From Candidatus Nanopelagicales bacterium (lineage in GTDB: Bacteria > Actinomycetota > Actinomycetes > S36-B12): a stretch of DNA of 64,000 bases. The translations under genes and the position numbers were made by a program. The DNA is taken from contig JBILOY010000001.1 of the NCBI GenBank assembly GCA_044374195.1, positions 101,883 through 165,882 of the forward strand. The letters run 5' to 3'. Positions within the stretch are counted from its first letter, which is position 1. The number at the start of each line of letters is the position of its first letter. The notes below the pieces were generated by a model. That model made no database searches. It was not told the origin of the DNA and saw nothing but the letters and a program-made list of their open reading frames with translations. Shown piece by piece: positions 2,516-22,615 of this stretch.

Positions 2516-2530
2516 GGCGAGCCGGACCTT

Positions 2531-6207: not shown

Positions 6208-6393
6208 ATGGCTGAAACTGAGCCGAAATCCGAGCGCGTGAACTTACGCGCCACCAAGCATCAGGTAGCGGTGCTTCGTCAGGCCTCGATGCTGGCAGGG
6301 CTGACTCTCACGTCCTACGTCCTCACGACTGCTGTGTCACGGGCCGAGCTTGAGATCCAGTCACTTACGCCAACAAATCCGGATCAGCCATAA
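6208..6393 (+). CDS. DUF1778/TacA-like ribbon-helix-helix antitoxin (short, no adjacent GNAT toxin)
   Basis: KSERVNLRAT..LRQASMLAGLTLTSYVL..A..RAE pattern. Confidence 0.7.
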   Translation: MAETEPKSERVNLRATKHQVAVLRQASMLAGLTLTSYVLTTAVSRAELEIQSLTPTNPDQP

Positions 6394-6425
6394 GTTCATC
6401 GAAGGCCGACCGCAATCTGAATGCG

Positions 6426-6683
6426 GTGTCACTCATCGTCGGCATCCCGCTGGCGATCGTCCTGTTCATTTGGGCGGGTTGGATCACTGTCACCGCGTTC
6501 GTCGGCGGGCAGGCACCGTTCTTTTTCGTCGACTTTGAGGGCGTCAATCCCATACGCGGGCTGTTCTGGCTGATCATTGTTGATCCGCTTGTACTCACGG
6601 TGGCCTATTGGATCTTCATGCTCGTGATGCTGCCGATCGGCGCGTTGGCGGCGGGTATTGGCAAGGCAACTGATCGCAAGTAG
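6426..6683 (+). CDS. Small membrane protein, hypothetical
   Basis: 85 aa with two hydrophobic segments. Confidence 0.55.
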   Translation: MSLIVGIPLAIVLFIWAGWITVTAFVGGQAPFFFVDFEGVNPIRGLFWLIIVDPLVLTVAYWIFMLVMLPIGALAAGIGKATDRK

Positions 6684-6788
6684 TCGACGGCAGAGTCACT
6701 GGTACTCACGTCACAACTCACAATGTGTAGAGATGGAAGTGCTTCCTCACCTACGCTTCCGTCAACTAACCATTGCAACGGGGGAAAC

Positions 6789-7652: not shown

Positions 7653-7710
7653 GAGAGGCCAGAAAAGTTCGATCTGGTCAAAAAGTGGGGTGTGGCGTTG
7701 GATTCTGCGC

Positions 7711-8472: not shown

Positions 8473-8674
8473 TCGCGATCAACTCTCTGTAGCAATGCCC
8501 AGGACGCCGTTCATAAAAGAAAGGACACCCCTGTCTCGACAGGCACGTCCGATGGATTTCAAGGCCGGGTTTTAGGACATCCCCCCGCGTTCCTTCTCGC
8601 GCATGTCCCTTACTCAGGTTACAGTCCAGACTCAGGTTCCGCATGTTGTGAACCCCCGAGGTTCTGGAGGAACC

Positions 8675-9778
8675 ATGGCACCGCGGTCGACCAGGGTTCT
8701 CGGGATTGCACTGGCGCCAGTGCTTTTGGCGGGCGGCCTGGTCGCTGCCGCGCCTGCGTTCGCCGCCACCCAAGTGTCGTTCACCACCCCTGGTCTTTCT
8801 TCGTGGACAGTTCCCGATGATGTGACTCAGGTGACGATCACCGCGATCGGTGGCGCGGGAGGTGCTGGCCTGCGCAGTCTTGGCGGAGCTGGCTGCACGG
8901 TGACGAACGTTTACTCAGTGACGCCAGGAGATGTCTTCCGCATTTTCGTCGGTGGCGGAGGTCTGGGCGGCTCCGGAACTGTCAGCGGCGGAGGTGGCGG
9001 GTCAACCACCATCAACCTTCAGCAGATCTCCGGGATCGTGGCCGGTGGCGGTGGCGGAGGCGGTGGCTATGACAACGTCTCTCCTTCGATCGGCCCGAAC
9101 GATGGCGGTGATGGTTGTGGTTCCTTCACCTCCGGTGGCAACGGGTTGAGCCCGAATGGTCAAGGTGGAAGCAATGCTGTCGGTGGTGGCGGTGGTGGTG
9201 GTGACCCCACCACAAACGGCGGCAGCGGCCTCGCGGGCGCAGGCGGGATCGGCTTCGGAAATCCGGGCAGCGGCGGTATGGGAGACGTCTGCTCATTTGG
9301 CGATGGCGGCACAACGATTTCCTTCGGCGGCGGTGGTGGCGGCGGCGGTTACGGTGGCGGCGGAGCGGGTTCACAACAGTCCCTCGGCGGACTGGGCACC
9401 GTCTACGGAGGCGGCGGAGGCGGCGGCAGTACTGGCCCGTCGGGCGCCACGTTTTCAATTGACACAGCGCGCACCGCGAATTCACTTACTGGCAGGAATG
9501 GATCGGTACTGATCAGTTTCGGCCCGCCTGACACGGCTCCTTCATGGTTCCAGTCCTACGCGCGCGGTGCATCGGTCTCCTGCCTCGCTGGCTGGAATCC
9601 GAGTTGGGCTCAATGGCCCGGTAACGGCACGGGTGGATACGTGTGTAACCGGGAGATCTACATGACCCCGACAGGTACCTGGTCTTCGCGCTCACAACTA
9701 CTCGGTTCGGTAGCGACGCAATCAACACCCGCGCCTGCCCATGGCCCGACTCGACCGGTGATCAGCTACCGCTGCTAG
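8675..9778 (+). CDS. Secreted glycine-rich protein with one C-terminal Cys/Trp module
   Basis: RBS GGAGG; signal peptide ..APAFA; WTVPDDVTQVTITAIGGAGG..VTPG..VGGGG glycine-rich domain; C-terminal CLAGWNPSWAQWPGNGTGGYVCNRE. Confidence 0.85.
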   Translation: MAPRSTRVLGIALAPVLLAGGLVAAAPAFAATQVSFTTPGLSSWTVPDDVTQVTITAIGGAGGAGLRSLGGAGCTVTNVYSVTPGDVFRIFVGGGGLGGSGTVSGGGGGSTTINLQQISGIVAGGGGGGGGYDNVSPSIGPNDGGDGCGSFTSGGNGLSPNGQGGSNAVGGGGGGGDPTTNGGSGLAGAGGIGFGNPGSGGMGDVCSFGDGGTTISFGGGGGGGGYGGGGAGSQQSLGGLGTVYGGGGGGGSTGPSGATFSIDTARTANSLTGRNGSVLISFGPPDTAPSWFQSYARGASVSCLAGWNPSWAQWPGNGTGGYVCNREIYMTPTGTWSSRSQLLGSVATQSTPAPAHGPTRPVISYRC

Positions 9779-9802
9779 GTGGCGGCGGGGCTACGGTGAG
9801 CA

Positions 9803-9841
9803 GAATTACTGCTTGACTGTAATTCAGCAGTAGCCTAGCCT
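9803..9841 (+). promoter_or_regulatory. Promoter and operator of the TA pair (probably leaderless)
   Basis: TTGACT-17 nt-TAGCCT, 6 nt before ATG 9848; inverted repeat GAATTAC..GTAATTC overlaps the -35. Confidence 0.6.
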
Positions 9842-9847
9842 TTTGTC

Positions 9848-10165
9848 ATGAGCAGTGCCCAGCCCTTCCACGGATTCGTGAGCGTCCAGTCTCGGGGCCT
9901 CGTGGCGCTACCCGCCTCCATTCGCAAGCGTTACCGCCTTGACGAGCCGGGAGCCCAGGTCGAGATCACGGAGCGCGCCGACGGCGTACTCGAATTGCGA
10001 CCCGCAGTGGCTGTGCCGGCTGGCGAGGCGTGGTTCTGGGAGAAGCGCTGGCAGGACGGCGAGCGCGAGGTCGATGCACTCGTTTCCGCGAAAGCCATCA
10101 CCGTGACCGAGGGTGTGGATGAGTTCTTGCAGTCCCTACCGACATCGGGCGACACTGCCGGATGA
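9848..10165 (+). CDS. AbrB/MazE/SpoVT-family antitoxin
   Basis: VQSRGLVALPASIRKRY..LELRP..AWFW..WQDGEREVD; ATGA overlap with the next gene. Confidence 0.85.
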   Translation: MSSAQPFHGFVSVQSRGLVALPASIRKRYRLDEPGAQVEITERADGVLELRPAVAVPAGEAWFWEKRWQDGEREVDALVSAKAITVTEGVDEFLQSLPTSGDTAG

Positions 10166-10473
10166 AATTCGAGCGCACCTCCCGCTTCGATTCCGACTTC
10201 GCTGCCTTACCGCGTGAGCATCAGGAGCAGTTTCGTTCGCTCATTCCCGACTTTCACACTGCTACCGAGGCCTTCGTTGCCTCGGGCGGCAAGGGCGGGT
10301 GGCCGAAGCGACTTCGAGTGCACCCGATGACGAGCGCACCCGGCATTTGGGAACTCACCTGGTCGTTCGCATCCCCCGATGGCCGGGCGACGTTCGAGTT
10401 CGTTAATCGCGAAGGCGAAGTACGCGTGCTGTGGCGCCGTATCGGTGATCACTCGATCTATCGGAGACCGTGA
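10162..10473 (+). CDS. RelE/ParE-superfamily toxin (putative)
   Basis: MKFERTSRFDSDF..GIWELTW..GRATF..WRRIGDHSIY; coupled to the antitoxin. Confidence 0.75.
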   Translation: MKFERTSRFDSDFAALPREHQEQFRSLIPDFHTATEAFVASGGKGGWPKRLRVHPMTSAPGIWELTWSFASPDGRATFEFVNREGEVRVLWRRIGDHSIYRRP

Positions 10474-10516
10474 CTCTTTTCGTTTCGCCGAGCAACCAGC
10501 AAGACCGACGTCGCCT

Positions 10517-11266
10517 CTAGATAGAGGGGTCGCTCGAGTCTGCCGTGGGCGGTTCTTCCGTCGCGGCCTCGCCAGGGGCGTCCTTATTCTTTCCCTTGAC
10601 CAGCAAGACGATGGCGACGACGAAGACGGCCACGACTGCGATCGCAAGGATCACGAGGATCAGCAGCTTCGTGGCGGACCCACTGGGTTCGGATGCCGCG
10701 ACCACCGTGACATTGAAGTTTTCACTCAAGGATCCTGCGACCGTGACGGTGTTCTCGTTGACCTTCGTGGCTCCATTGCCGGTGATACTCGAGATCGGGC
10801 CCGGGAATGTGGCCGTGAAGGAGAACTGGCCCAGGCTCATGCCCTCCAGCATCGCGGCTTCGTCACCCGTGCCGCCCTGGCTTTCGCTGACCACGTTCAA
10901 GGTGAGTTCGTCGCCCGTCTTCGTCAGCGACCAAGCGTCATCGAGCTCGGAGGCCTGAACATTCGCAACCGTGCACGTGACGATGAAGTTGGTGGCGTCC
11001 TCTGACTCCACGCAGGACTGGGCCACCTCGTTGTCGACGCCCAGATCCATATCACCCGACGTTATGGCTTCCCCGAGCTGCTCCTTGGAAGTCACACCGA
11101 GGGGGGCCATTGCCTCCTTGGAGATCGCCGCCGTGAAGGCGCCGGACAAGGTCGCATCGGAATTGACCGTGAGCTTGTAGGTCACGTCGATACAGGCGGT
11201 CAGCGTCAAGATCGCCATGGTTGCCACGGCAACAAGCCCGGCTGTTCGTCGAGTACGGGTGTTCAT
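10517..11266 (-). CDS. LppM-like (DUF3153) lipoprotein with a C-terminal TM anchor
   Basis: Lipobox LTAC, LTVNSDATLSG, TFPGPI..NG, C-terminal hydrophobic helix. Confidence 0.75.
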   Translation of the reverse strand: MNTRTRRTAGLVAVATMAILTLTACIDVTYKLTVNSDATLSGAFTAAISKEAMAPLGVTSKEQLGEAITSGDMDLGVDNEVAQSCVESEDATNFIVTCTVANVQASELDDAWSLTKTGDELTLNVVSESQGGTGDEAAMLEGMSLGQFSFTATFPGPISSITGNGATKVNENTVTVAGSLSENFNVTVVAASEPSGSATKLLILVILAIAVVAVFVVAIVLLVKGKNKDAPGEAATEEPPTADSSDPSI

Positions 11267-11429
11267 GGTTCCCCCTCAGGTTTTCGCCAACTTTAGTGGG
11301 CTGCTTGGGCTTCGGAGGCTCCAGAAACCACGTGTCTGGCGTGAAGGGCGCAGTTCACGGGCTACCGAAGAATCTGCCTCAACTTGTGTTGACCCCACCA
11401 GGTGCCGATGGCGAGAACGAGGAAGAAGA

Positions 11430-11636
11430 TCATCCTCTACTCCCTTCGCCCGGGGTGCTTACATGGGCGCTGCCCCAGGTGTGATTGCAGCAGATACATA
11501 AGAAGGTGATGGCTGCGCCCTTGCGCAGCTCGAGGCCCTGGGCACCGCATGCCGGGCATAGGGGCGCACGGGTCTCGTTGTGATGCGCAACTGCCGGGCG
11601 CTTCCGTTCGTCCTGATTTCTTCGTTCGACTCTCAT
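11430..11636 (-). CDS. Possible small zinc-ribbon protein
   Basis: CPACG..CICCNHTW in a 68-aa ORF occupying an otherwise empty gap. Confidence 0.3.
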   Translation of the reverse strand: MRVERRNQDERKRPAVAHHNETRAPLCPACGAQGLELRKGAAITFLCICCNHTWGSAHVSTPGEGSRG

Positions 11637-11700
11637 GGGACCAGAGTGACGGGAGGGTCTGACATTGCTCCGCGCGTCGCCCTCGGTCTAATGCGACACT

Positions 11701-12120
11701 GTGGTCGTGTTTAAGACAATCGGTCGCCTTGCTCTCGGTGCGTTCTTGATCTTTGCCTCGATCGGGCACTTCATCTCAGCCGACGAGTTTCTCGCCCAGG
11801 TGCCGCCGTGGATGCCAGCCCCAGAGCTCGTCGTTCTGGTCTCCGGTGGGGTCGAACTCGCACTTGGCTGCGCGCTCATCTTCTTTCCAAGGAAATGGCG
11901 GCCGATTGTTGGCTGTGTGACGGCAGCGTTCTTCGTCATCATCTTCCCGGGAAACCTCTGGCAGTACTTCGAGGCCAGAGATGCTTTTGGACTCGATTCA
12001 GATTCCGCTCGACTCGTGCGGTTGCTCTTCCAGCCCGTCCTTGTTCTGTGGGCTCTTTGGGCAACCGGGGCCTTTGCCGCGTGGCGGAAGAAATCAGCAG
12101 GTTCGGCCTCATCTGTCTAG
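11701..12120 (+). CDS. DoxX-family membrane protein
   Basis: GHF..VPPWMP..SGGVELALG..IFPGN..RLLFQPVL. Confidence 0.85.
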   Translation: MVVFKTIGRLALGAFLIFASIGHFISADEFLAQVPPWMPAPELVVLVSGGVELALGCALIFFPRKWRPIVGCVTAAFFVIIFPGNLWQYFEARDAFGLDSDSARLVRLLFQPVLVLWALWATGAFAAWRKKSAGSASSV

Positions 12121-12653
12121 GCCTGGCTTAGCCCCCTAGATTCGAGAAACTCAGTGATTGTGGCCCTCACCTCGGGCCGAATCACGCTCTCGCCCCACAC
12201 CCGATCGCAGATCTCCCAGACCTGGCTGACTGCTCTCAGCTCGAGAATCTCGCAGAGCACTGCGACGTCTTGCAGATCTCGCGGGCCTCGCCCGGCTCGC
12301 GCCTTCATTGCGAGCAGATGCTCGGCCGACGCAACCTCAACACTGAGCCCCGCAACGCTGAGCATCTCCCAGCTGCGGGAATCGGCAAGTCTGGGAAGCA
12401 GCGGGGCGACTCGCGAATTGAGCCAGTCGGGAGGCAAGTCACCGCGATCTTTTGCCATCTCGTCGACGACCTCGTCGATAACACCTGATGGCGTGATGAG
12501 CGCATCGATGTCACGAGTGACCGCGCTTCTGTCATAGCCGAGGAGCATGGCGGCTCCCCCGACGATGTAGAGCTCGACTTCGAGGCCACGGGCATCAAGG
12601 CGCTCACCGAGTTCGGTGAGCAGCGCGACGATCTCATCTTTCGTCGTGAACAT
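12117..12653 (-). CDS. DUF6036/AbiEii-like nucleotidyltransferase (putative TA toxin)
   Basis: YIVGGAAM..TRDIDA..LPPDWLN..LLAMK..RDLQD; ATG at 12653 directly follows the HTH gene stop. Confidence 0.8.
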   Translation of the reverse strand: MFTTKDEIVALLTELGERLDARGLEVELYIVGGAAMLLGYDRSAVTRDIDALITPSGVIDEVVDEMAKDRGDLPPDWLNSRVAPLLPRLADSRSWEMLSVAGLSVEVASAEHLLAMKARAGRGPRDLQDVAVLCEILELRAVSQVWEICDRVWGESVIRPEVRATITEFLESRGLSQA

Positions 12654-12654
12654 C

Positions 12655-13290
12655 TCAGACCGACTCAAGAGCGCGACGGTCGAGGTAGATGCCACGCGCT
12701 CGCAGGCTAGGAATACCGTTGGCGAAGGCCTGGGCCTTGAGGCTCTTGTCACCCTTCTTTAGGCCGACCCACCAGAGTTCGTCCAGATAAAGATGATGAG
12801 CATGAGTCCACGCGGGGGCGCGCTCGAGTTTGGCTGTGCGTGCCCAGTGAACGGCCATGCCGGCGAGCAGGGCGTCAGTGCGCTGATCGCCGGTCGACTG
12901 GGGCTGGGCGAGGAAGAGGCGAACATCGGCCTGGATGGAATGCTCGTCGCGCTTCGGGTTGGTTGCCTGCAAGGCGGCGTTCACTGAGTCATTCATTCCG
13001 ATCACGTAACGCATCAGCCAGAGGTCGAGCTCGGGGCCTTCGTGCTTGGTTGCCTGAAGGCTCTCTTTCAGGGTTTTCGCGTGCGAGGCGCAGGTGCCCA
13101 GCCACGTGGCGGCGTGAACGGTGCTCTCATGAAGACGCAGAAGCTCAGCCATCCGCTCTTCGACGACACTGCCGGGAGTGAGGGAGCCGGCTTCGTAGGC
13201 GCTGATATTCGCCTGCTGGGTGCCCAGGAGGAAGGCGACGTGCGACTGGGACATACCCGCGCTTGCGCGGTATTCCCTCAACTCGTGCAC
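12655..13290 (-). CDS. XRE-family HTH protein, putative antitoxin partner
   Basis: LREYRASAGMSQ..GTQQANISAYEAG; C-terminal DALLAG..APAW..SLRARGIYLDRRAL. Confidence 0.8.
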   Translation of the reverse strand: MHELREYRASAGMSQSHVAFLLGTQQANISAYEAGSLTPGSVVEERMAELLRLHESTVHAATWLGTCASHAKTLKESLQATKHEGPELDLWLMRYVIGMNDSVNAALQATNPKRDEHSIQADVRLFLAQPQSTGDQRTDALLAGMAVHWARTAKLERAPAWTHAHHLYLDELWWVGLKKGDKSLKAQAFANGIPSLRARGIYLDRRALESV

Positions 13291-13292
13291 GG

Positions 13293-13307
13293 AGGTATTA
13301 TATACCT
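13293..13307 (-). promoter_or_regulatory. Palindromic operator overlapping a TATAAT -10 (leaderless promoter)
   Basis: AGGTAT-TAT-ATACCT; the minus strand reads TATAAT-6 nt-GTG(13290). Confidence 0.6.
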
Positions 13308-13340
13308 ATGCTTATTGCTTATATTGCTCGCTTTACGCGC

Positions 13341-13586
13341 GAGTCATGGTTCTGGAAGCGACCGTGGAGACGGGGCGAACGCGAAGTTGACGCTCATGTG
13401 AAAGCTGGAGAGATCCGAGTGACTGACGGTGTCCGGGAATTCCTCATCTCCTTGCCGGTCACAATTACAGACATCGATCTCGAAAAGGAAGAAGTCTTCG
13501 ACTCCAAGGGCGTTCGCGTCGATAACGCGTACATCGAACGTGTAATGCAAGAAGTCGAGGCCGAACTCGAGAGGCGAGCCGACTAG
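13341..13586 (+). pseudogene. Truncated or chimeric antitoxin fragment (C-terminal half paralogous to 9848..10165)
   Basis: SWFWKRPWRRGEREVDAHVKAGEIRVTDGVREFLISLP versus AWFWEKRWQDGEREVDALVSAKAITVTEGVDEFLQSLP; the AbrB DNA-binding N-terminus is absent. Confidence 0.6.
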
Positions 13587-14260
13587 CGGTCGTTCCAGAT
13601 CCTTCGGAAATACACCCGATCGTGTTCGGCATCTGCTCGAAAGTCACCGAGATACTCTGACTGAGAGATGGCGTGAAAACACCCGAGTCCCTCGAGCGTG
13701 CAGAGATTGCCACCTCTTTCTTGCGCTCGACGCGCCAGGTCGTCGTCACCCCACCACCAGCGAAGACCAGGGTCAATGGCGAAGGGCTGATTGCGCCAGA
13801 AATCTGCTCGAAGCATGAACATCCAGCCGGTTCGCTCGGTCCACTCGACGGGAATGGCTTTGACACCAATCAGTTCGCCGCCATCGGCTGCCGGATCGAT
13901 GAAGGCGAGATCGAAGCCGGCCATTTCAGCGCGCATTCTTTGAAGAGTTCCCGGATGTAATCGGATGTCGTTGTTGAGAATTGCAAGGTGAGCTCCGGAT
14001 ATCTCGCTCGCTCGTGACACCATCTCGTTCCACATTCCGTGGAGACGTTCGCGCGGTCGGGTAACGACTGTGAGTCGCACATCCGAGGCGGCGAGACTCG
14101 CCGCCCATCTCGCCGTGTCGTCAGTCGAACCGTTGTCGAAAAGCCATACCTGATCGACCTCGTCACCATTGAGCAGCGACTCAACGAGGGGCTGGGTCCA
14201 CTCCAGCGCATTGCGCACGGGGATTCCTGCGATCAACTGGCCATTCGCAGGGGGTGTCAT
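13583..14260 (-). CDS. Glycosyltransferase family 2
   Basis: IPVRN..FDNGSTDDT..WNE..ILNNDI..WWGDDDL; ATG at 14260 next to the upstream stop. Confidence 0.85.
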   Translation of the reverse strand: MTPPANGQLIAGIPVRNALEWTQPLVESLLNGDEVDQVWLFDNGSTDDTARWAASLAASDVRLTVVTRPRERLHGMWNEMVSRASEISGAHLAILNNDIRLHPGTLQRMRAEMAGFDLAFIDPAADGGELIGVKAIPVEWTERTGWMFMLRADFWRNQPFAIDPGLRWWWGDDDLARRAQERGGNLCTLEGLGCFHAISQSEYLGDFRADAEHDRVYFRRIWNDR

Positions 14261-14261
14261 G

Positions 14262-15341
14262 TCAGGAGTATTGGGCGAGATTCGCGGAGACGGTGGCGTG
14301 AACATCGGCGGGAATGTCGGTTCGCTCGAGCAGTTCTCTCCAGATGAATTGGGCTCGCTCGCGATCACCACACCACCAGGAGTTGGCGGCAAGCTCGAGT
14401 TGAACGCCCCACGCGTACATCCAGGGTTCGACGAAGAGACGATCCCCTGCCGGCAGCTCGATGGATGCGGCGCGCTCTGCCCACATGAGAGCTGCGCCGT
14501 GGGCTCCGTTCTCGCGATAGCCGCGGGCGAGGTGAACGAGCGGCTCAACTCGATGGGAGCGGAACTCCCAGGCGGTGATGTACATCTGCGCAGCAGCAGG
14601 CCAATCCCCCGCTGCTTCAAGCAGCATCCCGCACTTGTACATCGACCAGAAGATCTCCTCCTCCCAGCCGCCAAGCTCGATGCGCCGGCGATAGGCCGCT
14701 AGTGCACCCGGAACATCTCCGAGACCTTCGCGAGTCTGAGCGAGATAGAAGAACGTGCGTGCGTTATCAGGGTCCGCGTAGGCATCGCTCTCGAGAAGAC
14801 CGAGATCACGTTGCAGCTTGGTATCCCTGTTGCCTCCATCACCGATGTGGGTGATGACGATGTCGTCACACGGGGTAGCGGTGGCGCCAATCGCGGTAAA
14901 GGACAGGTACTCGTGCGTTCGTCCAATGTAGGAACATTCGAGATCGCTAGAGACGAGGTACGGCATCCGATACTGCAGGCCCGACTCAACCATGATGTCG
15001 TAGGCAGCCTCAGTTAGATCCTCCAGAGGATCAGCAGAGGTGATTCTTACCGTCATGTCGGCATCGAGCAAGAGCAGGTAGTCCGCAGTGGGCCGTGCCA
15101 ATTCGAGCAGCTCATTCCTATTGGTGGAAAAGTCGCGCCACGGCCTTGTGTGAACGTTGCCCGGAATGCCCGCGAGGGACTCCTTCACGAGTTCAACAGT
15201 GTTATCTGTCGACCCGGTATCGACGATCGTCCAGGTGTCGATCAGGCCGCGCACACTGCCGAGGCAGCGCTCGATGATGTGGGCTTCGTTGCGCACGATC
15301 ATGGCTAGGCCGATACGTGGGCGCGGTGAGTTGAGAGTCAT
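14262..15341 (-). CDS. GT2 glycosyltransferase with TPR domain
   Basis: MIVRNEAHIIERCL..VDTGSTDNT..DFSTNRN..LLDAD..THEY..FYLAQT, followed by TPR-like helices. Confidence 0.9.
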   Translation of the reverse strand: MTLNSPRPRIGLAMIVRNEAHIIERCLGSVRGLIDTWTIVDTGSTDNTVELVKESLAGIPGNVHTRPWRDFSTNRNELLELARPTADYLLLLDADMTVRITSADPLEDLTEAAYDIMVESGLQYRMPYLVSSDLECSYIGRTHEYLSFTAIGATATPCDDIVITHIGDGGNRDTKLQRDLGLLESDAYADPDNARTFFYLAQTREGLGDVPGALAAYRRRIELGGWEEEIFWSMYKCGMLLEAAGDWPAAAQMYITAWEFRSHRVEPLVHLARGYRENGAHGAALMWAERAASIELPAGDRLFVEPWMYAWGVQLELAANSWWCGDRERAQFIWRELLERTDIPADVHATVSANLAQYS

Positions 15342-15359
15342 GCTCGACCAGGTGCTGGA

Positions 15360-16040
15360 CTATCCGGCAGCGCCGGTCGGACCCATCGGGCCGGTATCGC
15401 CCTGGAAACCTGTGGGGCCCATCTCGCCGGTGTAACCGGTCGGACCGGTGTAACCGGTGTAGCCGGTCGGACCAGTGGGCCCAATCCCGCCGGGTCCAGT
15501 AGCGCCTTCCATCCCCGTGACACCCTGTGGGCCGGTGTAACCAGTCGGACCGGTGGCCCCGGCAATTCCATCTTGGCCAGCCGGACCGGCGGGACCAGTA
15601 AGACCGGTGTTGCTGCCCGTCGGGCCGGTGGCACCCGCGGTGCCGTTGGCGCCATCAGAGCCAGCGGGGCCGGACGAACCATCGGAGCCCTTCTGCCCTG
15701 CTTGACCCGCGGGGCCAGTAGCACCGGAGGTGCCATTCGCGCCCGTCGCGCCATTGGCGCCGTTGCGGCCGTTGGTTCCATCAGAGCCGGAGCTACCTGT
15801 TGCGCCTGCAGCACCACTTTGACCAGGGCTACCCGCGGGGCCAGCCGGACCGGCCGGACCCGAGCCGCCAGCAGCACCGGGTTGGCCGTTGGCGCCGGCG
15901 GCGCCGGAGGCGCCATCTGGAGCAATGATCTTGGTGACCACTGCACCACCGATCACGCCACCGATGATTGCGAGGCATGAGTTCACGAGGATGCTGCGAC
16001 GGGCAATGAAGTTCGAGAATCCACCGAGGGGCGAGCTCAA
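15360..16040 (-). CDS. Collagen-like protein with an N-terminal hydrophobic anchor
   Basis: ~60 Gly-X-Y triplets with two interruptions, Thr-rich GPT/GYT tail; RBS AAGGAG before TTG. Confidence 0.9.
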
Positions 16041-16107
16041 CGTTCTCTCCTTCTCGGTAGTCCGTACGCGCAGTTAGCTGAGGCTAGTGGGTCTTGGGAC
16101 CCTCGAG

Positions 16108-18150
16108 TCACCTTTCCGAAGGACACGCAGGATGAATAAGCGGCGAAACTTCTGCCCAGCAGCAGATCGCGAGCCGCGCGGACGAGTCGTCCCTGCCAAA
16201 AGACAGATACACGTGTGTATTCGAGTAGCAGCCACCCGCCACGAATTCCAGGCTGAGTTCCTCGATAGCGAACGGCGGGCCCATATGCACGTGTTCCCCG
16301 CAGTAGGTCACGAAGCAATGCAGATAGGTGCGTGCGGGTCGATTCGGAGAACTGAGGGAAGGCCCGACCCTGTGGGCCACGTACACCGGACCGTGCGGCG
16401 TAGCGAAGACGGGCGAACTTCCGCGCCACTCGTGTTCTGCTAATCGCGTGGGCCGCCCCACTGAGGGCACCACCTGTCGGGCGAGGAGATCCAGCCAGAG
16501 TCGCGCAAACGGCTGCGTGGACCAAACAGCGTCGAGACCGAATCCGTCACTCGGAATCACAACCCAGTTCTTCTCGTACACCGCTTCGCCGTCATCAGCG
16601 GTGAGCGGCGAGGGGATACGCCATGGACGATCGAGTGCCACGCCATTGTCGCGCTCAATAAGTTCCGAGAGGACCTGCCGGATTGCGCCCGACTTACTGT
16701 GATCGCGAATCGCTCCGAGAGTCCACCAGCCACTCCCCCGCGGGAATAGGCGCATGTCCTCAACGCCGTGCACGGGAAACAAGGGGCTCGGCGTCGTGGC
16801 TGATGAGTCATCAATCCATTGCCAGTTCGTGAAGTCGCCCTCGGACGACACGTCGACGATGCCGGTTCGCGAGCGAATCACTCCATCGCTATCGACCATG
16901 TCGTAGTGATCGTGAACAAGGTGATAGTTCACGGTTCGAACCGTCATCCGCATGTGCTCGCCGTCGCTGGCGATACTGGGATTCATCAACACCCAGCCGG
17001 AGGGCAGATCCGCCGGTGGCGCAACCGTCAGCATTTCAATCGCTGGTAGCACTCGCCAGTGGGTGACATCGCCCGTGCGATCCAATGCAGGCGCCCATGT
17101 GTCGAGTGCTTCCCGGAACTTCGCGAGATTGACATGCAGCCGGTGGTCAGCGGGCTCGAGCTCGACCGCACGTTCTCCGTGGCGAACCGCACCCGCGAAG
17201 TCGTGAAGGTGGAAGGATGCATTTGCTGCCATGTCATCGAGCCGGGAACCCCACGCCTGTGACTCGGTGAGATATTCCTCAGGCCGCCGGTCGAGTACTA
17301 GCGCTTTCTGGCAGGCCTCGAGACATTCGTCCCATCGCTCCAGCACGAAGTAGTGAAACGCAAGATCGACCCAGGGCTCTCGTCGACTCGGTGCCTCCTT
17401 GACTGCGAGCGGCAACCAATGCTCGGCTTTCTCCGGTTCGCACACGGCCAGAAATCTCAACGACTGCGCCCGCTCCGCATCCCACAGTGCGGTGGGCAGC
17501 GCTAAATGCCGATTGAACTCACGGGCTGCCTCCTCGAATCGCCCCTCGTACATGTACTCGCGTGCAAGGTAGTGGGCATTGCGGTCATTATCGGGATCCT
17601 CGGCGACGGCTAGCTCGAGAAGAGGTAGGTACTGGCCGCGATCCTTGCCCTGATCTCGAAAATGAAAGATCTGAAGACTCGTCCGGCCCTGCACTTCCTC
17701 TCCGATCGGTATGAGGACTTCATGCACGGGATATCGCCACGTGTAACCGTGACGAGTATGGATTTTGTCGCCCGCGTACTGCAGCCCCGGTTGTCCATCG
17801 TCATTCCATGACCAGGTGTACGGATAGCGGTATCTCGTCACGTGAGGATCGAATGACTTCTTCAGCTCCTCCCGCCAGCCGGACACGAGGACTTCATCGA
17901 GGTCGAGGGAGATGCACAGATCGACGTCAGCGGGAATGAGCTCAAGTGACCGATTTCGCGCATCATCGAATCGCCAGGGCGAGATCAACTCCTCGAACAC
18001 GGTCACGCCAGCTTGCCGAGCCAATTCCACCGTGGCATCGCTAGAGCCCGTGTCGAGGAGAATTCGATAATCAGCCTCGGCACACGACTCAGCCCAGGCG
18101 GCCACTGATGCCGCCTCGTTCTTGGAGATTCCGTACACGGCTACGCGCAC
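16108..18150 (-). CDS. GT2 + TPR + C-terminal beta-propeller glycosidase/phosphorylase-like domain
   Basis: YGISKNE..DTGSSD..PWRFDDARN..SLDLDE..HEVL; C-terminal NPSI..RTVNY..GVEDMRLF..EKNW..RGSSP..LEFVAG..SFGRDD. Confidence 0.85.
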   Translation of the reverse strand: MRVAVYGISKNEAASVAAWAESCAEADYRILLDTGSSDATVELARQAGVTVFEELISPWRFDDARNRSLELIPADVDLCISLDLDEVLVSGWREELKKSFDPHVTRYRYPYTWSWNDDGQPGLQYAGDKIHTRHGYTWRYPVHEVLIPIGEEVQGRTSLQIFHFRDQGKDRGQYLPLLELAVAEDPDNDRNAHYLAREYMYEGRFEEAAREFNRHLALPTALWDAERAQSLRFLAVCEPEKAEHWLPLAVKEAPSRREPWVDLAFHYFVLERWDECLEACQKALVLDRRPEEYLTESQAWGSRLDDMAANASFHLHDFAGAVRHGERAVELEPADHRLHVNLAKFREALDTWAPALDRTGDVTHWRVLPAIEMLTVAPPADLPSGWVLMNPSIASDGEHMRMTVRTVNYHLVHDHYDMVDSDGVIRSRTGIVDVSSEGDFTNWQWIDDSSATTPSPLFPVHGVEDMRLFPRGSGWWTLGAIRDHSKSGAIRQVLSELIERDNGVALDRPWRIPSPLTADDGEAVYEKNWVVIPSDGFGLDAVWSTQPFARLWLDLLARQVVPSVGRPTRLAEHEWRGSSPVFATPHGPVYVAHRVGPSLSSPNRPARTYLHCFVTYCGEHVHMGPPFAIEELSLEFVAGGCYSNTHVYLSFGRDDSSARLAICCWAEVSPLIHPACPSER

Positions 18151-18245
18151 GCCATGCTCCGCATCGCCGGTTTAGAGATCACTGCGCCATTATCCGAGTA
18201 AGCGTCGACAGCGCCCGAGCGCAGGGCTGAATCGCTATCGATGCG

Positions 18246-18836
18246 CTAATCGCCGAGCGCCTGCACCTTGATGTCTGACCAGTTGCCGAGGCGATTACGG
18301 ATCATCGCTCCCGATGGCGCCTGCGGAGCATTGGCCTTCTTCCAGGCATCCCAGCCTGCGAAGGATCCGCGGGTGCTCGGGTCGGCGAGATAACGGCGAA
18401 CATCGTCAAGGATCTGATCGTCTGTCCACGCGGAGGTGAAGGTGCGGTTCGGCTTCTTGCCCGCGGGCACTCCCGCCCTCTCTGCGGCATCAGCCCAGGA
18501 GCCGAATACCTGCAGCACGCGCACGGCAGTGGGGCCATCAATCTGCTTGCTGCTAACGAGCTCGCTGTACTTGGCGTAACTGAGGGCATCGGTACTGCCG
18601 CTGACCTGGGCCCATGCCTGGCGCAGGGCGTCGAGGATTTCGTCCTCACTCCACTTTCGGCTCGAACCGGTGCGATGACGCACAGCGAGTCTGCGTGCAT
18701 CGTCCGTCATCGCCTTGGCGAGCTGGGGCTTGGTCCAGTTCAAGGCCTTTTGGGCGTCATCGACGCTGGTGCCCGGGTGATCGGTGAGCCAGGCCACGAG
18801 GGTCAACTGGTCGCTCATCACACCACCGCTGTCCAC
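18246..18836 (-). CDS. Homing-endonuclease-associated repeat protein (two repeats, no nuclease domain)
   Basis: WSEDEILDALR..Y..GPT..FGSWADAAERAG and WTDDQILDDVR..PSG..RLGNW. Confidence 0.75.
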   Translation of the reverse strand: MDSGGVMSDQLTLVAWLTDHPGTSVDDAQKALNWTKPQLAKAMTDDARRLAVRHRTGSSRKWSEDEILDALRQAWAQVSGSTDALSYAKYSELVSSKQIDGPTAVRVLQVFGSWADAAERAGVPAGKKPNRTFTSAWTDDQILDDVRRYLADPSTRGSFAGWDAWKKANAPQAPSGAMIRNRLGNWSDIKVQALGD

Positions 18837-18916
18837 ACCCCCAGATTAGGTGCCAATTCGTTCACAAACACGAACGGACTCTTGACCAAGATCGAATCTT
18901 GAGAATAATCCTGATC

Positions 18917-19180
18917 ATGGCAATTGAGTCCCTCACCAAGGTCAAATCCCAGTTGTCCGCCCTCGTCGATTCAGTGCACAGTACCCATGAGCGGATCATC
19001 ATCACGCGTAACGGAAAGCCTGCCGCCGTCTTGATATCCCCTGAAGATCTCGAGTCGCTCGAGGAGACCATCGCGGTTCTCTCCGATCCCGATGCCATGA
19101 CCGAAATCAAGGAAGCCAGATCAGCAATTGCACGAGGCGAGACATCTGCCGCAGACGACGTTCGGATTCGCCACCTATAA
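18917..19180 (+). CDS. Phd/YefM-family antitoxin (no toxin downstream)
   Basis: KSQLSALVDSV..IIITRNGKPAAVLIS.EDLESLEET..LSDP; upstream inverted repeat CAAGAT-cga-ATCTTG. Confidence 0.9.
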   Translation: MAIESLTKVKSQLSALVDSVHSTHERIIITRNGKPAAVLISPEDLESLEETIAVLSDPDAMTEIKEARSAIARGETSAADDVRIRHL

Positions 19181-19200
19181 GAGTTTGTACCCCTCGGTGG

Positions 19201-20106
19201 CTAGTTGATCGAGCCTTCGTCGGCGAAGGGATCGGATACGGCCGGCGAGGGAGCGTTCACGGCAGGGGCCGGATCAGTGCTTGCGCCCACACTCGGAGTC
19301 GGCTTGGGCTTCTGGACCTTCTTCGGGTTCTCGTCGAAGGTTGTCGGCAGTTCGGGAGCAGAGACGTCATACATGCGAGCCCTGCGCGGCAGGAGTGCGG
19401 TGAGCACGGCGATCTTCTGATCCGCCTTCTGGTCATTGCCCCAGCGCACGACAGCACCGGAGCCGAGGGTGAAGGTGACGTCGTCGCGCGACTTCGCGGT
19501 GAGCGAGACGATCTTGCGCGAGATCTCCGGCGGCAGCTGTTGATAGATGCGCACGGCGGTGCCAAGGGCACCTGGGTTCGAGCCTTCGATGGTGAGCAAA
19601 TTCTTGGGAAGCGCGGTCGGCGAAAGGTAGGCGATGCCGTCAGCATCAATTGCCTGACCGTCAGTCGACTGAGCAACGGCTACTCGCGGGGTGACAGCGA
19701 TGACGATGTCGTTCGGGTAGCCGCGGCGCACGTCAACACTTGCGATCCATGGCAACGCGCCCTGCACGGCCGACCCAATTGCGGCGGTGTCGACCTTGGC
19801 GATGGGCTCCCCCATCGGAACGGGCGCAGCAGAGATGACCTGTTGCTGAAGTGCTTCATCAACACCGGTGACCTTGACGGCCTTGACCGCCAGCACGCTC
19901 GAGAACCACACGAGCCAGACGGCAACGAGAGCGATGGTGACGATGCTGAGAATGATGATCGCCTTCAGCGGCGACTTCCGCTTGCCCTTGCGGCGGGGCA
20001 GACGAGTGACCTTGCCGTTCTTGCTGCCTGAGCTACTTCTCGTGCTTGCGGCTCTGGTTCTGCTGCCGCTTGCCGGCTTCTTCTTGGCCGGTTTCTTCTC
20101 AGCCAC
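19201..20106 (-). CDS. ftsQ: Cell division protein FtsQ
   Basis: Basic N-tail, single TM, POTRA (VKVTG..VDVRRGYP), YDVSAPELP; downstream of murC. Confidence 0.92.
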   Translation of the reverse strand: MAEKKPAKKKPASGSRTRAASTRSSSGSKNGKVTRLPRRKGKRKSPLKAIIILSIVTIALVAVWLVWFSSVLAVKAVKVTGVDEALQQQVISAAPVPMGEPIAKVDTAAIGSAVQGALPWIASVDVRRGYPNDIVIAVTPRVAVAQSTDGQAIDADGIAYLSPTALPKNLLTIEGSNPGALGTAVRIYQQLPPEISRKIVSLTAKSRDDVTFTLGSGAVVRWGNDQKADQKIAVLTALLPRRARMYDVSAPELPTTFDENPKKVQKPKPTPSVGASTDPAPAVNAPSPAVSDPFADEGSIN

Positions 20107-21499
20107 GAGTGGCTCGCAGGAGATCGAGAACCTCGAGGCCGATCATGCCGATGTCACCGGCGCCGAGGGTCATGATGATGTCGCCGGGCTTGGCGCGATC
20201 GACCAGATGTCCGGCAACTGCTGACCAACTGGGCTCGAAGACGACTTGTTCCCTGGGCAGCGGAACATTGGCAGCCATGGTCTGACCACTGGCTCCCGGA
20301 ATCGGTGTCTCACCGGGGGCGAAGACCTCGAGCACCACGACCTGATCGGCAAGGCCCAGAGCCTCGCCGAACTCCTTGGTGAACATGGCCGTGCGGTAGT
20401 AGTGGTGAGCCTGGAAGGCGACGACAACCGAACCCTCGCCTGCGACTTCGCGGGCGGCCTTGAGGGTCGCATCGATCTCGGTCGGGTGATGGGCGTAGTC
20501 GTCGAACACTCGAATTCCGCCCACTTCACCCTTGAAATCGAAACGGCGGCGTGTGCCGGTGAAGCCGCAGATGCCCTCGGCCATGGTCGCCGGCTCCATC
20601 CCCAGGCCAATGCCGACGACGAAGGCGGCGGTGGCATTTAGGGCGTTGTGCTTGCCGGGCACCTGCACTCGTATGTGAGCGATGATCTCACCGTTATTGC
20701 TGATGTCGAAGGCCCAGCCGCGGCCCTCGAGGGTGGCGTTGACGATGCGGTAGTCGGCGCTCTCGCTCTCGCCGTAGGTGCGCACGTCGGCGTTGAGGGC
20801 CTTGGTCGTGGCGGCGAGTCTTTGCGCCCCGGGGTCATCGGCGCATACGACGGTGAAACCGGTGTTCGCATCGATGCCCATCACGAAATCGACGAAACCC
20901 TGCTCGACGGCCTCGAAGGTGCCCCAGTGATTGAGGTGATCGGCCTCGACATTGGTCACGATGCCGGCGACAGCGGGCAGGAACAAGAAAGCGCCATCGC
21001 TCTCATCGGCCTCGGCGACGAAGATATCGCCACTGCCGAGGTGAGCATTGCTGCCCGACTCATTGAGCTCACTGCCGATCGCGAAGCTCGGATCAACGCC
21101 GCAGTGCTGCAAGGCGACAGTGAGCATCGAGGTTGTCGTGGTCTTGCCATGGGTGCCGGCAACCGCGACTCCCCTACTGCCGGTCATGATCGCGGCCAAC
21201 GCCTCGGCGCGGTTCAGAATGCGCAGACCCTTGACCTGGGCAGCGGTGCGCTCGGGATTCGACTCGGGAATGGCAGTGGAGAAGATGACGGTGTCGATGC
21301 CTTCGACGTAACTGGCGTCGTGCCCCAAATGGGTGGTGACGCCGATGGCCTTGAGCGCGGTAAGTCTTCTGGAGTCCTTGGCGTCGCTGCCGCTGACCGT
21401 GACCCCGCGCTCGACAAGGATGCGCGCGATGCCTGACATGCCGGCACCGCCAATACCGATGATGTGAACGGAGCCGAGCTCGCTGACGGAAATCGTCAT
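20099..21499 (-). CDS. murC: UDP-N-acetylmuramate-L-alanine ligase
   Basis: HIIGIGGAGMSG, AGTHGKTTT, EADESD, DDYAHHPTE; start trimmed to ATG 21499. Confidence 0.97.
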   Translation of the reverse strand: MTISVSELGSVHIIGIGGAGMSGIARILVERGVTVSGSDAKDSRRLTALKAIGVTTHLGHDASYVEGIDTVIFSTAIPESNPERTAAQVKGLRILNRAEALAAIMTGSRGVAVAGTHGKTTTTSMLTVALQHCGVDPSFAIGSELNESGSNAHLGSGDIFVAEADESDGAFLFLPAVAGIVTNVEADHLNHWGTFEAVEQGFVDFVMGIDANTGFTVVCADDPGAQRLAATTKALNADVRTYGESESADYRIVNATLEGRGWAFDISNNGEIIAHIRVQVPGKHNALNATAAFVVGIGLGMEPATMAEGICGFTGTRRRFDFKGEVGGIRVFDDYAHHPTEIDATLKAAREVAGEGSVVVAFQAHHYYRTAMFTKEFGEALGLADQVVVLEVFAPGETPIPGASGQTMAANVPLPREQVVFEPSWSAVAGHLVDRAKPGDIIMTLGAGDIGMIGLEVLDLLRATRG

Positions 21500-22608
21500 G
21501 CGTGGCCTCCGCTGCTCGTCGTGCCCTTCGCAGTGCTGCCCTTGGCTACTGAGATGACGAACTCGGCCAGACGCTGATCGGCATCGCGAATGCCCAAGGT
21601 CGCGGCAGCCTCGCCCATCGCCTCGAGTTCGTCCTGATCGCTGAGCAAGTGATTGGCGGCATTCAACAGCCACTCGGTATCGAAGTCGGCGTCATCGACG
21701 ATCAAGCCACCGCCGGCCTCGACAATCGGCAGCGCATTGAGCCGCTGCTCGCCATTGCCGATGGGAAGAGGCACATAGATCGCCGGCAGGCCGACTGCCG
21801 ACAGTTCGGCGCAGGTCATGGCGCCCGCACGCGTGACGGCGAGATCAGCGGCGGCGTAGGCGAGATCCATGCGATCGATATAGGGCACGGAGATATAGCC
21901 CGGTTGCGCATTGGGCGTCTCGTTCTTGCTGCCGAAGGCATGCAGGATCCAGATGCCGTTCTTGGTGAGATCAGAAAGCGACTCGGCGATGACAGCATTG
22001 AAGTGAGCGGCGCCCTGGCTACCGCCGAAGACAAGCAGCACCTTGGCGTCGGCGGGGATACCGAAGTGATCTCGGGCTCCTTGCCTAGTGACTTGTCGAT
22101 CGAGGCCGGCGATCGCGGGGCGCAGCGGCAAGCCCATGACTGTGGCATGCGGCAACGAGCCGGGCACGGTGGTGATCACATTGCGAGTCAGGCGCGCGCC
22201 GAGCTTGTTGGCCACGCCGGCGCGGGCATTAGCCTCGTGAATGACGAGCGGGGTCTTGGTGCGTCGCGCTGCGAGATAGGTCGGCAACGAGGCATAGCCG
22301 CCGAAACCGATCGCCACATCTGCGTGAACCTCTCGAAGGATTGCCGCGGCATCGCTGACGGCGCCGCTGACCCTCGGCGTGACAAGCAGCAGATCGATGG
22401 ACGGCTTACGCGGAAGCGGGACGGCCGCGACAGTGCGCAACTCATAACCCCGCGCGGGCACCAGGGACGTCTCGAGTCCTCGATTGCTGCCGATTACCGT
22501 GATGCGCACGGCCGGATCAATACGACGAAGAGCATCAGCCAGATTCAGGGCCGGCTCGATGTGACCGGCAGTTCCGCCGGTGGCCAAGACGACGGAGAGT
22601 TCGCTCAT
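21496..22608 (-). CDS. murG: Lipid II GlcNAc transferase
   Basis: GGTAGHIEP, FGGY, FGGSQGA, GEQRLNA. Confidence 0.97.
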   Translation of the reverse strand: MSELSVVLATGGTAGHIEPALNLADALRRIDPAVRITVIGSNRGLETSLVPARGYELRTVAAVPLPRKPSIDLLLVTPRVSGAVSDAAAILREVHADVAIGFGGYASLPTYLAARRTKTPLVIHEANARAGVANKLGARLTRNVITTVPGSLPHATVMGLPLRPAIAGLDRQVTRQGARDHFGIPADAKVLLVFGGSQGAAHFNAVIAESLSDLTKNGIWILHAFGSKNETPNAQPGYISVPYIDRMDLAYAAADLAVTRAGAMTCAELSAVGLPAIYVPLPIGNGEQRLNALPIVEAGGGLIVDDADFDTEWLLNAANHLLSDQDELEAMGEAAATLGIRDADQRLAEFVISVAKGSTAKGTTSSGGHA

Positions 22609-22615
22609 GACCTGA

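Follow-up and report, generated by a model that had tools for sequence, protein, structure and literature searches.

According to the available portion of its description (PMC7157674), the glycosyltransferase SgtA of Clostridioides difficile (CD3350) is a 358-aa enzyme with a GT-A domain (residues 1-260) and tetratricopeptide repeats (TPR, residues 262-358), which requires Mn2+ and transfers beta-O-linked N-acetylglucosamine (GlcNAc) from UDP-GlcNAc to Thr, and also Ser, of collagen-repeat peptides of BclA3; in the same portion, extending glycosyltransferases were presumed and were not found. Here, a 64,000-nucleotide stretch of the genome of Candidatus Nanopelagicales bacterium (GCA_044374195.1, contig JBILOY010000001.1, positions 101,883 to 165,882, hereafter the window) was analysed for a group of four genes in which a collagen-like gene lies among three genes for glycosyltransferases (GTs) of family 2 (GT2), named gtA, gtB and gtC. 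These four genes are predicted to form, probably, a self-contained mobile cassette for an O-glycosylated, membrane-anchored collagen-like fibre.

Phages carry enzymes of the same kind: the PHROG 13126 family, named 'beta-1,4-glycosyltransferase' and classed as moron/auxiliary metabolic gene (AMG), matches both the N-terminal half of gtA and gtB, and the phage gene follows Thr-rich collagen-like fibre genes, for example in Actinomycetia phage DSL-LC01. In the accessible text of two lake-phage papers these GTs are interpreted as modifiers of DNA or of the cell wall (PMC10202952; PMC7029224), and collagen is not mentioned in the accessible text of the DSL-LC01 paper (PMC10611076).

The collagen cassette and its predicted products

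The features of the cassette are as follows:

16108..18150, minus strand: gtA, 680 aa, GTG start; GT2 domain, TPR repeats and GH130-like propeller
17107..18150, minus strand: N-half of gtA (residues 1-348); GT2-TPR module of SgtA/SunS type with DTGSSD and DLDE (DXD) motifs
16108..17115, minus strand: C-domain of gtA (residues 346-680); predicted five-bladed beta-propeller of GH130/GT108 type
16047..16053, minus strand: Shine-Dalgarno box GAAGGAG, 6 nt ahead of the collagen TTG start
15360..16040, minus strand: collagen-like protein, 226 aa, TTG start; PF01391 (E 2.1e-26) in four stretches
15927..16040, minus strand: N-terminal anchor (residues 1-38); behind its n-region come the invariant R14-R15, one polar and two hydrophobic residues, an uncharged stretch of 21 residues containing GGxxGG, and a Lys
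15363..15914, minus strand: collagen domain (residues 43-226) with a conserved GSNTG interruption and an aromatic-rich C-terminal third
14262..15341, minus strand: gtB, 359 aa, ATG start; GT2-TPR protein with DTGSTD and DAD motifs (PF00535, E 3.9e-10)
13583..14260, minus strand: gtC, 225 aa; single-domain GT2 protein (PF00535, E 3e-12)
13491..13505, minus strand: terminator-like hairpin about 80 nt past the gtC stop, a possible operon end; shuffled sequences gave 3.1 such sites against the 1 found, so it is not above chance

The order gtA, collagen, gtB, gtC, the common orientation and the gaps of 67, 18 and 1 nt given in the preliminary description of the window were reproduced exactly from the open reading frame (ORF) coordinates, and all four frames are intact. 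The gtC start was placed at an ATG internal to a longer frame (13583-14674). A scan for promoters and terminators returned one promoter-like and one terminator-like site, neither of which exceeded shuffled sequence. The earlier label of a three-glycosyltransferase operon holds for the number of GT genes; because the propeller of gtA is GH130-like, these three genes contain four predicted sugar-handling modules.

For gtB, the Pfam TPR matches remained below their cut-offs, and residues 9-339 matched PHROG 13126 (E 4.2e-29). The AlphaFold2 model, built on a 27-sequence alignment (predicted local distance difference test, pLDDT, 92.7), contains a GT-A sheet (residues 10-165) followed by ten helices, and was matched over its full length to ThuS and SunS (7msk, 7msn) by Foldseek (E 4.6e-18 to 9.5e-18, TMq 0.66). 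The next class of matches (E about 1e-7) was eleven orders weaker and covered the TPR part or the GT-A part alone (OGT and GmaR included). The NCBIfam SunS model TIGR04195 scored 42.1 bits against a cut-off of 350, on residues 5-96 only, and gtB is therefore assigned to the SunS fold class and not to the SunS family. Columns D41, T42, G43, S44, D46, D93, A94 and D95 were invariant in gtB, and the nucleotide-binding DTGS.D and DXD motifs are intact in both GT2-TPR modules (gtA N-half and gtB). By its predicted fold, gtB would be a GT2-TPR protein glycosyltransferase.

The small protein gtC aligned end to end with residues 352-576 of P0031, a 579-aa GT2-TPR-GT fusion (E 5e-7), and shares the motifs HxMWN, NxD and WWxGDxD with its second domain; the same fusion architecture was found in most of the approximately 100 listed relatives of the gtA N-half. 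The nearest Atlas clusters to gtC were small viral GT2 proteins, which is a lead only. No hydrophobic 19-mer above 1.32 was found in gtA, gtB or gtC, so all three enzymes should be soluble and cytoplasmic.

In gtA, Pfam recognised TPR only (residues 175-344, TPR_2 E 3.9e-11), and the GT2 identity of the N-half was obtained from PHROG 13126 (residues 1-348 against profile positions 1-357 of 394, E 9.4e-103). D33, T34, G35, S36, D38, D83, L84, D85 and E86 were invariant columns of the corresponding alignment (A1). The propeller that had been proposed for the C-terminal half was confirmed by an AlphaFold2 model of residues 346-680 (pLDDT 89.5) and by its structural matches: the top Foldseek matches were all GH130 proteins (from E 7.8e-10), and 263 residues were aligned with 9gph (Z 23.4, root mean square deviation 3.2 Å). 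The 21 best structural neighbours were all GH130 mannoside phosphorylases, hydrolases or synthases (Z 23.4-20.1), followed by Leishmania MPT (GT108, Z about 18) and GH43 (Z about 17).

At the sequence level, the window's C-domain gave no match to PF04041 (GH130) at the gathering score and one of 28 relatives examined was recorded at E 0.039; PF12141 (BMT) was matched by two of these 28 (E 0.0045). Residues G117, E119, D120 and R122 were invariant or nearly so in the C-domain alignment (A2), and the resulting G-x-E-D-x-R aligned with GIEDAR of Lin0857 in a weak profile match (whole-sequence E 0.002). The Asp of this motif is presumably the catalytic Asp of GH130. Relatives of the C-domain number 693, and in many of these it is joined to a GT2-TPR, methyltransferase or sulfotransferase domain; full-length relatives of gtA form 13 protein clusters (56-81% identity).

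Fusions of the GT2-TPR module to varied second modules were also seen in phages and metagenomes (among P0016-P0120; L033-L035, L045-L047, L059-L063), the partners being gtC-like GT2 domains (about 575-612 aa), methyltransferases (about 520 aa) and the GH130-like propeller (about 680 aa). Tandem arrays of two or three GT2-TPR modules occur in some phages (L008, L009, L055, L057, L064, L071, L078). This variety looks like a modular fibre-glycan toolkit.

The collagen-like protein scored 91.9 bits with PF01391 against the Pfam cut-off of 27.2, and the equivalent start codon in a congener is ATG. Its collagen domain comprises 60 G-X-Y triplets with two interruptions, Y being Thr in 19 of them and Ser in 6, and contains only 9 charged residues out of 184. 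The protein ends in ...GPTGAAG-stop, which is still triplet sequence, so there is no C-terminal domain. Its single hydrophobic 19-mer (residues 17-35, Kyte-Doolittle mean 2.24) lies in the anchor. The N-terminal hydrophobic anchor, the Thr-rich triplets and the absent C-terminal globular domain listed in the preliminary description were thus all found in the sequence. With the collagen-helix rise of 0.286 nm per residue, the 184 residues would form a rod of about 50 nm, if triple-helical.

In an alignment of 11 collagens (A4: the window's and 10 homologues from two cassette classes, 43-73% identical to the window's), Met1, Arg14-Arg15, Gly28, Gly31 and Gly32 were invariant in 11 of 11. A lipoprotein reading of the anchor was ruled out, Cys22 being Ala or Gly in the homologues. 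A database search with the anchor alone (residues 1-48) returned 17 candidates, none of them scored, the query being too short for that database.

An interruption stands at a common position (A4 columns 160-175) in all window-type collagens (GPTGSN[T/S]G) and in the second class (GPLGG), and the C-terminal third of window-type collagens is rich in Tyr, Phe and Trp at position X (GYTG, GFQG, GYWG). The conserved interruption may be a kink, and the aromatic third may be a tip or a region of self-association. In lake contigs the collagen gene carries a 9-nt insertion (runs X4 and X5) or a 9-nt deletion (run X2), at 15834 and 15891; as each is in frame and equals one whole G-X-Y unit, the fibre differs in length between strains.

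Linkage to collagen genes, distribution and origin

Relatives of the gtA N-half were found in approximately 770 viral and 1600 genome stretches (39-55% identity), and the best 80 of each were examined. The genome loci comprised 74 from Bacillota, 3 from Bacteroidota, and 1 each actinobacterial, from Mycoplasmatota and unlabelled; the 74 Bacillota homologues (39-48% identity) make sequence kinship to SgtA likely. An ORF was counted as collagen-like when it contained at least 12 consecutive G-X-Y triplets, or at least 25 in runs of at least 6.

The neighbourhood check set beforehand, which asked whether GT homologues are linked to collagen genes elsewhere, showed a link that is real and wide. 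A collagen-like ORF ended no more than 300 nt upstream of the GT, on the same strand, at 50 of the 80 genome loci and 18 of the 80 viral loci, the viral count omitting two loci with tandem GT modules. Anywhere in the flanks, such ORFs were present at 61 of 80 genome loci (60 of 80 within 3 kb of the GT) and at 38 of 80 viral loci, all on the GT strand in the latter. Collagen-ORF density within 2 kb of the GT was 2.22 per 10 kb in genomes against 0.06 farther away (36-fold), and 1.08 against 0.27 in viruses (4-fold). The linked collagens are poor in charged residues, and Thr occupies a median share of 0.59 (viral) or 0.57 (genome) of their Y positions; a share of at least 0.25 was reached by all 45 viral same-strand ORFs and by 59 of the 60 from genomes. 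Lake phage DSL-LC01, which is complete, has the GT2-TPR gene in one co-oriented block together with two genes annotated as collagen. The proposal that the GTs are dedicated to the collagen is backed by this family-wide linkage, by the density enrichment and by the peptide-glycosyltransferase fold of gtB. Among gut Bacillota metagenome-assembled genome loci (L090-L168), a Thr-rich collagen gene precedes the GT2-TPR gene in 50 of 79; these collagen genes may be of the spore-coat (BclA-like) or of the prophage-fibre kind.

The complete four-gene set, with its gene order unchanged, recurs in three genera of actinobacteria and in metagenomes from lakes. Of the eight other genomes of the genus, two carry relatives of gtA, and in one of these only a fragment is present, at the end of a contig; the gtA C-domain was present in 6 of 390 genomes of the order: this one, G004, 3 of 13 of a second genus and 1 of 93 of another family. 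In G004, gtA, a 256-aa collagen gene, gtB and gtC lie beside the same ftsQ-adjacent gene; all four genes are also carried by G227, where the copy adjoins a GGDEF-EAL gene and nrdJ/nrdR, and by G219. The gtA fragment of G003 is not near ftsQ. A three-gene form is found in G376 (propeller gene, 154-aa collagen gene, gtB, then an HNH_2 gene). The collagen gene is retained within every complete copy of the cassette. The HNH_2 gene of G376 (L183, 3711-4628), right behind the cassette, is 49% identical to the HNH_2 gene of the window (1151-2077) and may be mobile together with either the cassette or a restriction system.

When metagenomes were scanned with the gtA C-domain, 263 pattern matches yielded 64 confirmed loci, many of which are short. 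Four further loci are of the window type: L185 (93-97% identical), L187, L188 and L190, and a second class with the order propeller gene-gtB-collagen gene was represented by eight loci (L191-L194, L196-L198, L200). Collagen-like ORFs were contained in 29 of the 64 loci, and many more distant GT2-TPR-propeller fusions in metagenomes adjoin other collagen-like ORFs. Contigs from four lake metagenomes, 85-99% alike, span the whole stretch and bridge the collagen gene and gtB.

The foreign origin suspected from the outset was supported by the patchy distribution, by the differing genomic contexts and by the lower G+C content at third codon positions (GC3) of the cassette genes (0.63-0.69, against 0.77-0.83 in ftsQ, murC and ftsZ), and these comparisons of sequence support a horizontal spread of the cassette. 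Two deep groups were distinguished among the GT2-TPR modules: the gtB type, confined to actinobacterial cassettes and metagenome contigs, and the gtA type, which also holds viral and Bacillota sequences. The GT phylogeny that had been suggested for telling Firmicutes, viral and actinobacterial origins apart was calculated on subsamples (FastTree: 40 of the 94 viral rows and 30 of the 79 genome rows; IQ-TREE: 22 viral and 14 genome rows). With IQ-TREE rooted on the gtB type, the viral (support 96), Bacillota (99) and cassette gtA (100) sequences each formed one group, but the branching order among the three differed between trees, and no donor is named: the cassette gtA N-half was sister to Bacillota and metagenome rows in FastTree (support 98) and to viral rows in the quick IQ-TREE run (support 34). 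The cassette enzymes may be shared, and perhaps exchanged, with phages of lake actinobacteria.

Proposed mechanism, export route and rival explanations

The cassette could operate as follows. The unfolded collagen would be gripped in the cytoplasm by the TPR arm of gtB, of the gtA N-half or of both, and these modules would attach the first sugar to Thr or Ser at position Y of G-X-Y, as SgtA of C. difficile does on BclA3. The glycan would be extended by the GH130-like domain of gtA, which may add a beta-linked hexose from a sugar-1-phosphate or a GDP-sugar, and by gtC. The chain would be exported and kept tethered through its N-terminal Arg-Arg and Gly-rich helix, and three chains would wind into a triple helix of about 50 nm reaching through the wall, the GGxxGG helix replacing a trimerisation domain; the GGxxGG face is a candidate trimerisation nucleus. 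Candidate roles of such a fibre are a surface coat, adhesion, and protection from phages or grazers. The masking of phage receptors suggested in the preliminary description found no support in the results; its one hint is that a type IIG restriction enzyme and an AbiEii-like gene share the island.

The motif R-R-[S/T/N]-[L/I/V]-[L/I] was found in 13 of 13 anchors, preceded by 9-15 residues and followed by 21-28 uncharged residues, with Lys directly after the uncharged stretch in the window's class. The Arg-Arg codons vary across the 13 anchors (CGT CGC, AGG CGG, CGA CGA, CGC CGC, CGA CGC, CGG CGC), as do the flanking residues, and Lys replaces neither Arg. No hydrophobic stretch precedes the repeats in any of 66 collagen-like ORFs of the mostly Bacillota genome loci, and among 45 viral collagen-like ORFs only one was flagged as hydrophobic, internally (residue 263), and none N-terminally. 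Judged on sequence, the Arg-Arg and Gly-rich helix would thus be a feature resembling twin-arginine translocation (Tat) signals, absent from phage and Bacillota collagens. TatC (PF00902) is encoded in the same genome (contig C26, E 3.9e-65, above cut-off). On the unrelated contig L203 (619-1611 and 2070-4106), the gene for a 330-aa Thr-rich collagen lies upstream of a 678-aa GT2-TPR-propeller gene; this collagen starts with a textbook Tat leader (MTNRRSFL...ANA/ANA) and has an additional domain in its N-terminal part, which gives the Tat reading independent support. The Pfam Tat-signal model had no match in eight N-termini at E up to 10, the textbook-like L203 control being missed as well. The Tat pathway carries folded proteins, and this would reconcile soluble cytoplasmic GTs with an exported triple helix. 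Tat export of the collagen is the route we favour, tentatively. By the positive-inside rule, a positively charged flank stays inside; since the Arg pair is N-terminal to the helix, the N-terminus is expected inside and the collagen outward by either export route.

Several points weigh against parts of the proposal. Thr occupies 32% of the Y positions in the window collagen, against medians of 57-59% in linked collagens, and the protein is without a trimerisation domain. The kinship of gtB and gtA to SgtA rests on architecture, fold class and gene context. GH130 enzymes are mainly phosphorylases and hydrolases, and a degradative role of the GH130-like domain of gtA is possible. As regards Tat, the hydrophobic stretch (21 residues, mean 1.96) resembles a membrane anchor more closely than the h-region usual in Tat signals, no clear signal-peptidase site was found in the window collagen (its only I-I-A is followed by Pro), the Arg-Arg could be a plain positive-inside signal, and the 13 anchors come from only two or three clades.

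In a rival reading, the same glycosylated fibre uses an ordinary type II anchor of the general secretory (Sec)/signal recognition particle (SRP) route: the Arg pair would set the N-terminus inside, the unfolded chain would pass through SecYEG and the helix would fold outside. The uncharged stretch of 21-28 residues with a mean hydropathy of 1.1-2.0 is what is expected of a membrane helix, adhesins that are glycosylated in the cytoplasm, HMW1 among them, cross by Sec, and the silence of the Pfam Tat model is in keeping with it, although uninformative given the missed control. It has greater difficulty with the Arg pair, which is never Lys in 13 sequences despite varying codons and flanks, with the Lys after the helix in window-type sequences, which resembles a Sec-avoidance charge, and with the clear Tat leader of the L203 collagen beside the same kind of enzyme; co-translational insertion would also leave the soluble GTs little access to the chain. 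We hold the Sec route to be a serious possibility, at less than even odds. Less likely than not as a whole is the reading that joins all the steps: a collagen glycosylated and folded in the cytoplasm, exported by Tat, with an uncleaved signal-anchor whose GGxxGG nucleates the trimer, a task done in other bacterial collagens by a globular domain, with the GH130-like module as a sugar-phosphate-dependent transferase on protein-bound glycan, and with enzymes shared with phages of lake actinobacteria. If true, bacteria would have an equivalent of the transmembrane collagens of animals, and its manner of production would be one so far undescribed among collagens.

Other explanations dispense with the glycosylated surface fibre. 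The GTs could make or decorate a cell-wall polysaccharide or a polymer like teichoic acid, with the collagen as an unmodified neighbour, and this would suit the general habit of GT2 enzymes, which act mostly on glycans or lipids, the annotation of one relative as 'glycosyltransferase involved in cell wall biosynthesis' and the DNA or cell-wall interpretation in the accessible text of the lake-phage literature (PMC10202952). Such a role is improbable when the cassette has no flippase, polymerase, lipid-carrier or transporter gene, the GTs have no membrane segment, the fold of gtB is that of peptide glycosyltransferases, and a collagen gene sits in every complete cassette copy within a family-wide linkage. 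It is very improbable that the locus is a piece of decayed prophage, with a truncated tail-fibre gene for collagen and GTs as phage morons without a present role. The collagen matches 27 PHROG families (mostly tail fibres), gtA and gtB match PHROG 13126, the look-alikes of gtC are viral, the genes lie in a variable island of lower GC3, and in DSL-LC01 collagen genes share one block with this GT; yet the tail-fibre matches are restricted to the G-X-Y repeats, 0 of 14 other island ORFs match a phage structural family, the Arg-Arg anchor is kept in cellular copies and missing from viral collagen ORFs, and four intact frames are conserved in three genera in different chromosomal contexts. On these grounds, the prophage reading was rejected. 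The opposite topology (N-out, C-in), with the collagen domain as a membrane-tethered scaffold inside the cell, would explain the access of the GTs to their substrate without further steps, but the two Arg stand N-terminal to the helix and the C-terminal flank has a net charge of about 0; we give this arrangement the least credence of all.

Island setting and relation to known systems

The cassette lies in an island of approximately 18 kb (window 994-19200), inserted within the cell-division cluster between ftsZ and ftsQ. From ftsZ, the island contains the HNH_2 gene, a type IIG restriction-modification gene, several lipoprotein-like or anchored ORFs without an assigned family, an AbiEii-like gene with a helix-turn-helix gene, the cassette and a gene for a 196-aa protein. 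The features outside the cassette are as follows:

1-993, strand not given: ftsZ, one flank of the island
1151-2077, minus strand: HNH_2 endonuclease, at the far end of the island
2531-5341, minus strand: full-length MmeI-like type IIG restriction-methyltransferase with all five MmeI Pfam domains (PADLOC E 0)
12117-12752, minus strand: DUF6036/AbiEii-like nucleotidyltransferase, overlapping the helix-turn-helix gene
12655-13290, minus strand: helix-turn-helix protein, partner of the AbiEii-like gene; the pair follows directly downstream of gtC
18246-18836, minus strand: conserved 196-aa protein between ftsQ and the cassette, 78% identical in G004; weak HTH_PafC, HNH_repeat and EndoU matches only
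19201-20106, strand not given: ftsQ, the other flank of the island
19201-22611, strand not given: FtsQ, Mur ligase and MurG-type GT28 (cell-division cluster)

The AbiEii-like and helix-turn-helix pair looks like a type IV toxin-antitoxin or abortive-infection module, and the 196-aa protein could be a regulator of the cassette. The GC content is 57-59% across 1-7 kb around the MmeI-like gene, against about 64% elsewhere. In G004, different genes follow the cassette at the same place (TIG, Big_9/cadherin-like and beta-propeller-repeat secreted proteins), so the ftsQ-ftsZ gap looks like a hot spot for variable islands in the genus. No tRNA was found in the 64-kb window. The PHROG scan of the 14 other island ORFs matched helix-turn-helix and HNH genes only and no phage structural family, and PADLOC had no match for the four cassette proteins. 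The source assembly comprises 2.4 Mb in 62 contigs (98% complete), and lake-water metagenome runs contain part of the window DNA; among the 24 runs listed, none with RNA contained it.

Literature searches returned no paper joining collagen-like proteins with GT2-TPR enzymes in phages (supplements excluded), none joining the two with Tat export (at the level of search listings, mostly Legionella papers), none linking SunS, SgtA and collagen, and none describing such a system in freshwater actinobacteria. The preliminary description had called the system undescribed, which holds for the literature searched. It had also pointed to GT2-TPR enzymes that glycosylate BclA-type proteins in Bacillus and Clostridioides; this precedent was found for C. 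difficile SgtA/BclA3 in the accessible part of PMC7157674, and nothing was seen for Bacillus.

The layout of gtB and of the gtA N-half is that of SgtA as described in the accessible part of its paper, a soluble enzyme of about 358 aa (gtB, 359 aa) with a GT-A domain followed by TPR, and in both cases the enzyme gene adjoins a collagen-like gene rich in G-X-Thr. The SgtA/BclA3 pair is exosporial, whereas the window belongs to a lake actinobacterium in which no sign of sporulation was noticed, and a system of the vegetative cell envelope is proposed here. The hallmarks of BclA-type proteins (a C-terminal globular trimerising domain and an N-terminal exosporium-targeting region) are absent from the window collagen, which is short and headless, with triplets to the end and an N-terminal Arg-Arg membrane anchor. 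One cassette here combines two GT2-TPR (initiator-type) modules, a GH130-like module and a further GT2. SunS and ThuS (7msn, 7msk), to which the full-length gtB model is structurally closest, likewise join a GT2 domain to a helical repeat arm that holds the peptide, but they act on Cys of small bacteriocin precursors and not on collagen repeats, and gtB falls below the cut-off of the SunS model.

With GH130 and GT108 proteins (9gph, 7fip, 5b0p, 9erg, 6q4x), the gtA C-domain shares the five-bladed propeller (Z 23.4-17.5); it differs in having no Pfam GH130 match (identity 9-15%), in its fusion to a protein glycosyltransferase and in its place within a collagen cassette. Most phage copies of PHROG 13126 are standalone proteins of about 355 aa, others being joined to either a gtC-like GT2 or to a methyltransferase, and phage collagens are long fibres without a membrane anchor, unlike the window collagen. 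The family name implies a glycan target, and the gene context here does not fit it.

The vertebrate transmembrane collagens XIII, XVII, XXIII and XXV are type II proteins in which a short N-terminus in the cytoplasm and a single membrane helix are followed by an extracellular collagen rod that probably folds from the membrane outward, and they have coiled-coil nucleation regions, hydroxyproline and modification in the endoplasmic reticulum. Their type II layout is like that predicted for the window collagen, with no kinship beyond G-X-Y.

Taken with these systems, the cassette most likely represents a counterpart, on the cell surface, of a system for which Clostridioides spores have been the one object of study until now. 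Collagen O-glycosylation by GT2-TPR enzymes has been worked out in one spore-former, and the same type of enzyme is now found in non-sporulating lake actinobacteria beside a minimal, self-anchored collagen. This offers testable questions: whether Thr glycosylation stabilises triple helices poor in proline and charge, how a headless collagen trimerises, and whether a folded glycoprotein rod uses Tat. The PHROG 13126 family (approximately 770 viral and 1600 genome stretches) would be reassigned from 'cell-wall or DNA' to 'collagen-fibre glycosyltransferase', and a GH130-like domain would be placed in protein glycosylation. Host and phage would share an enzyme family acting on the same kind of fibre, a possible contact point in the phage-host ecology of lakes.

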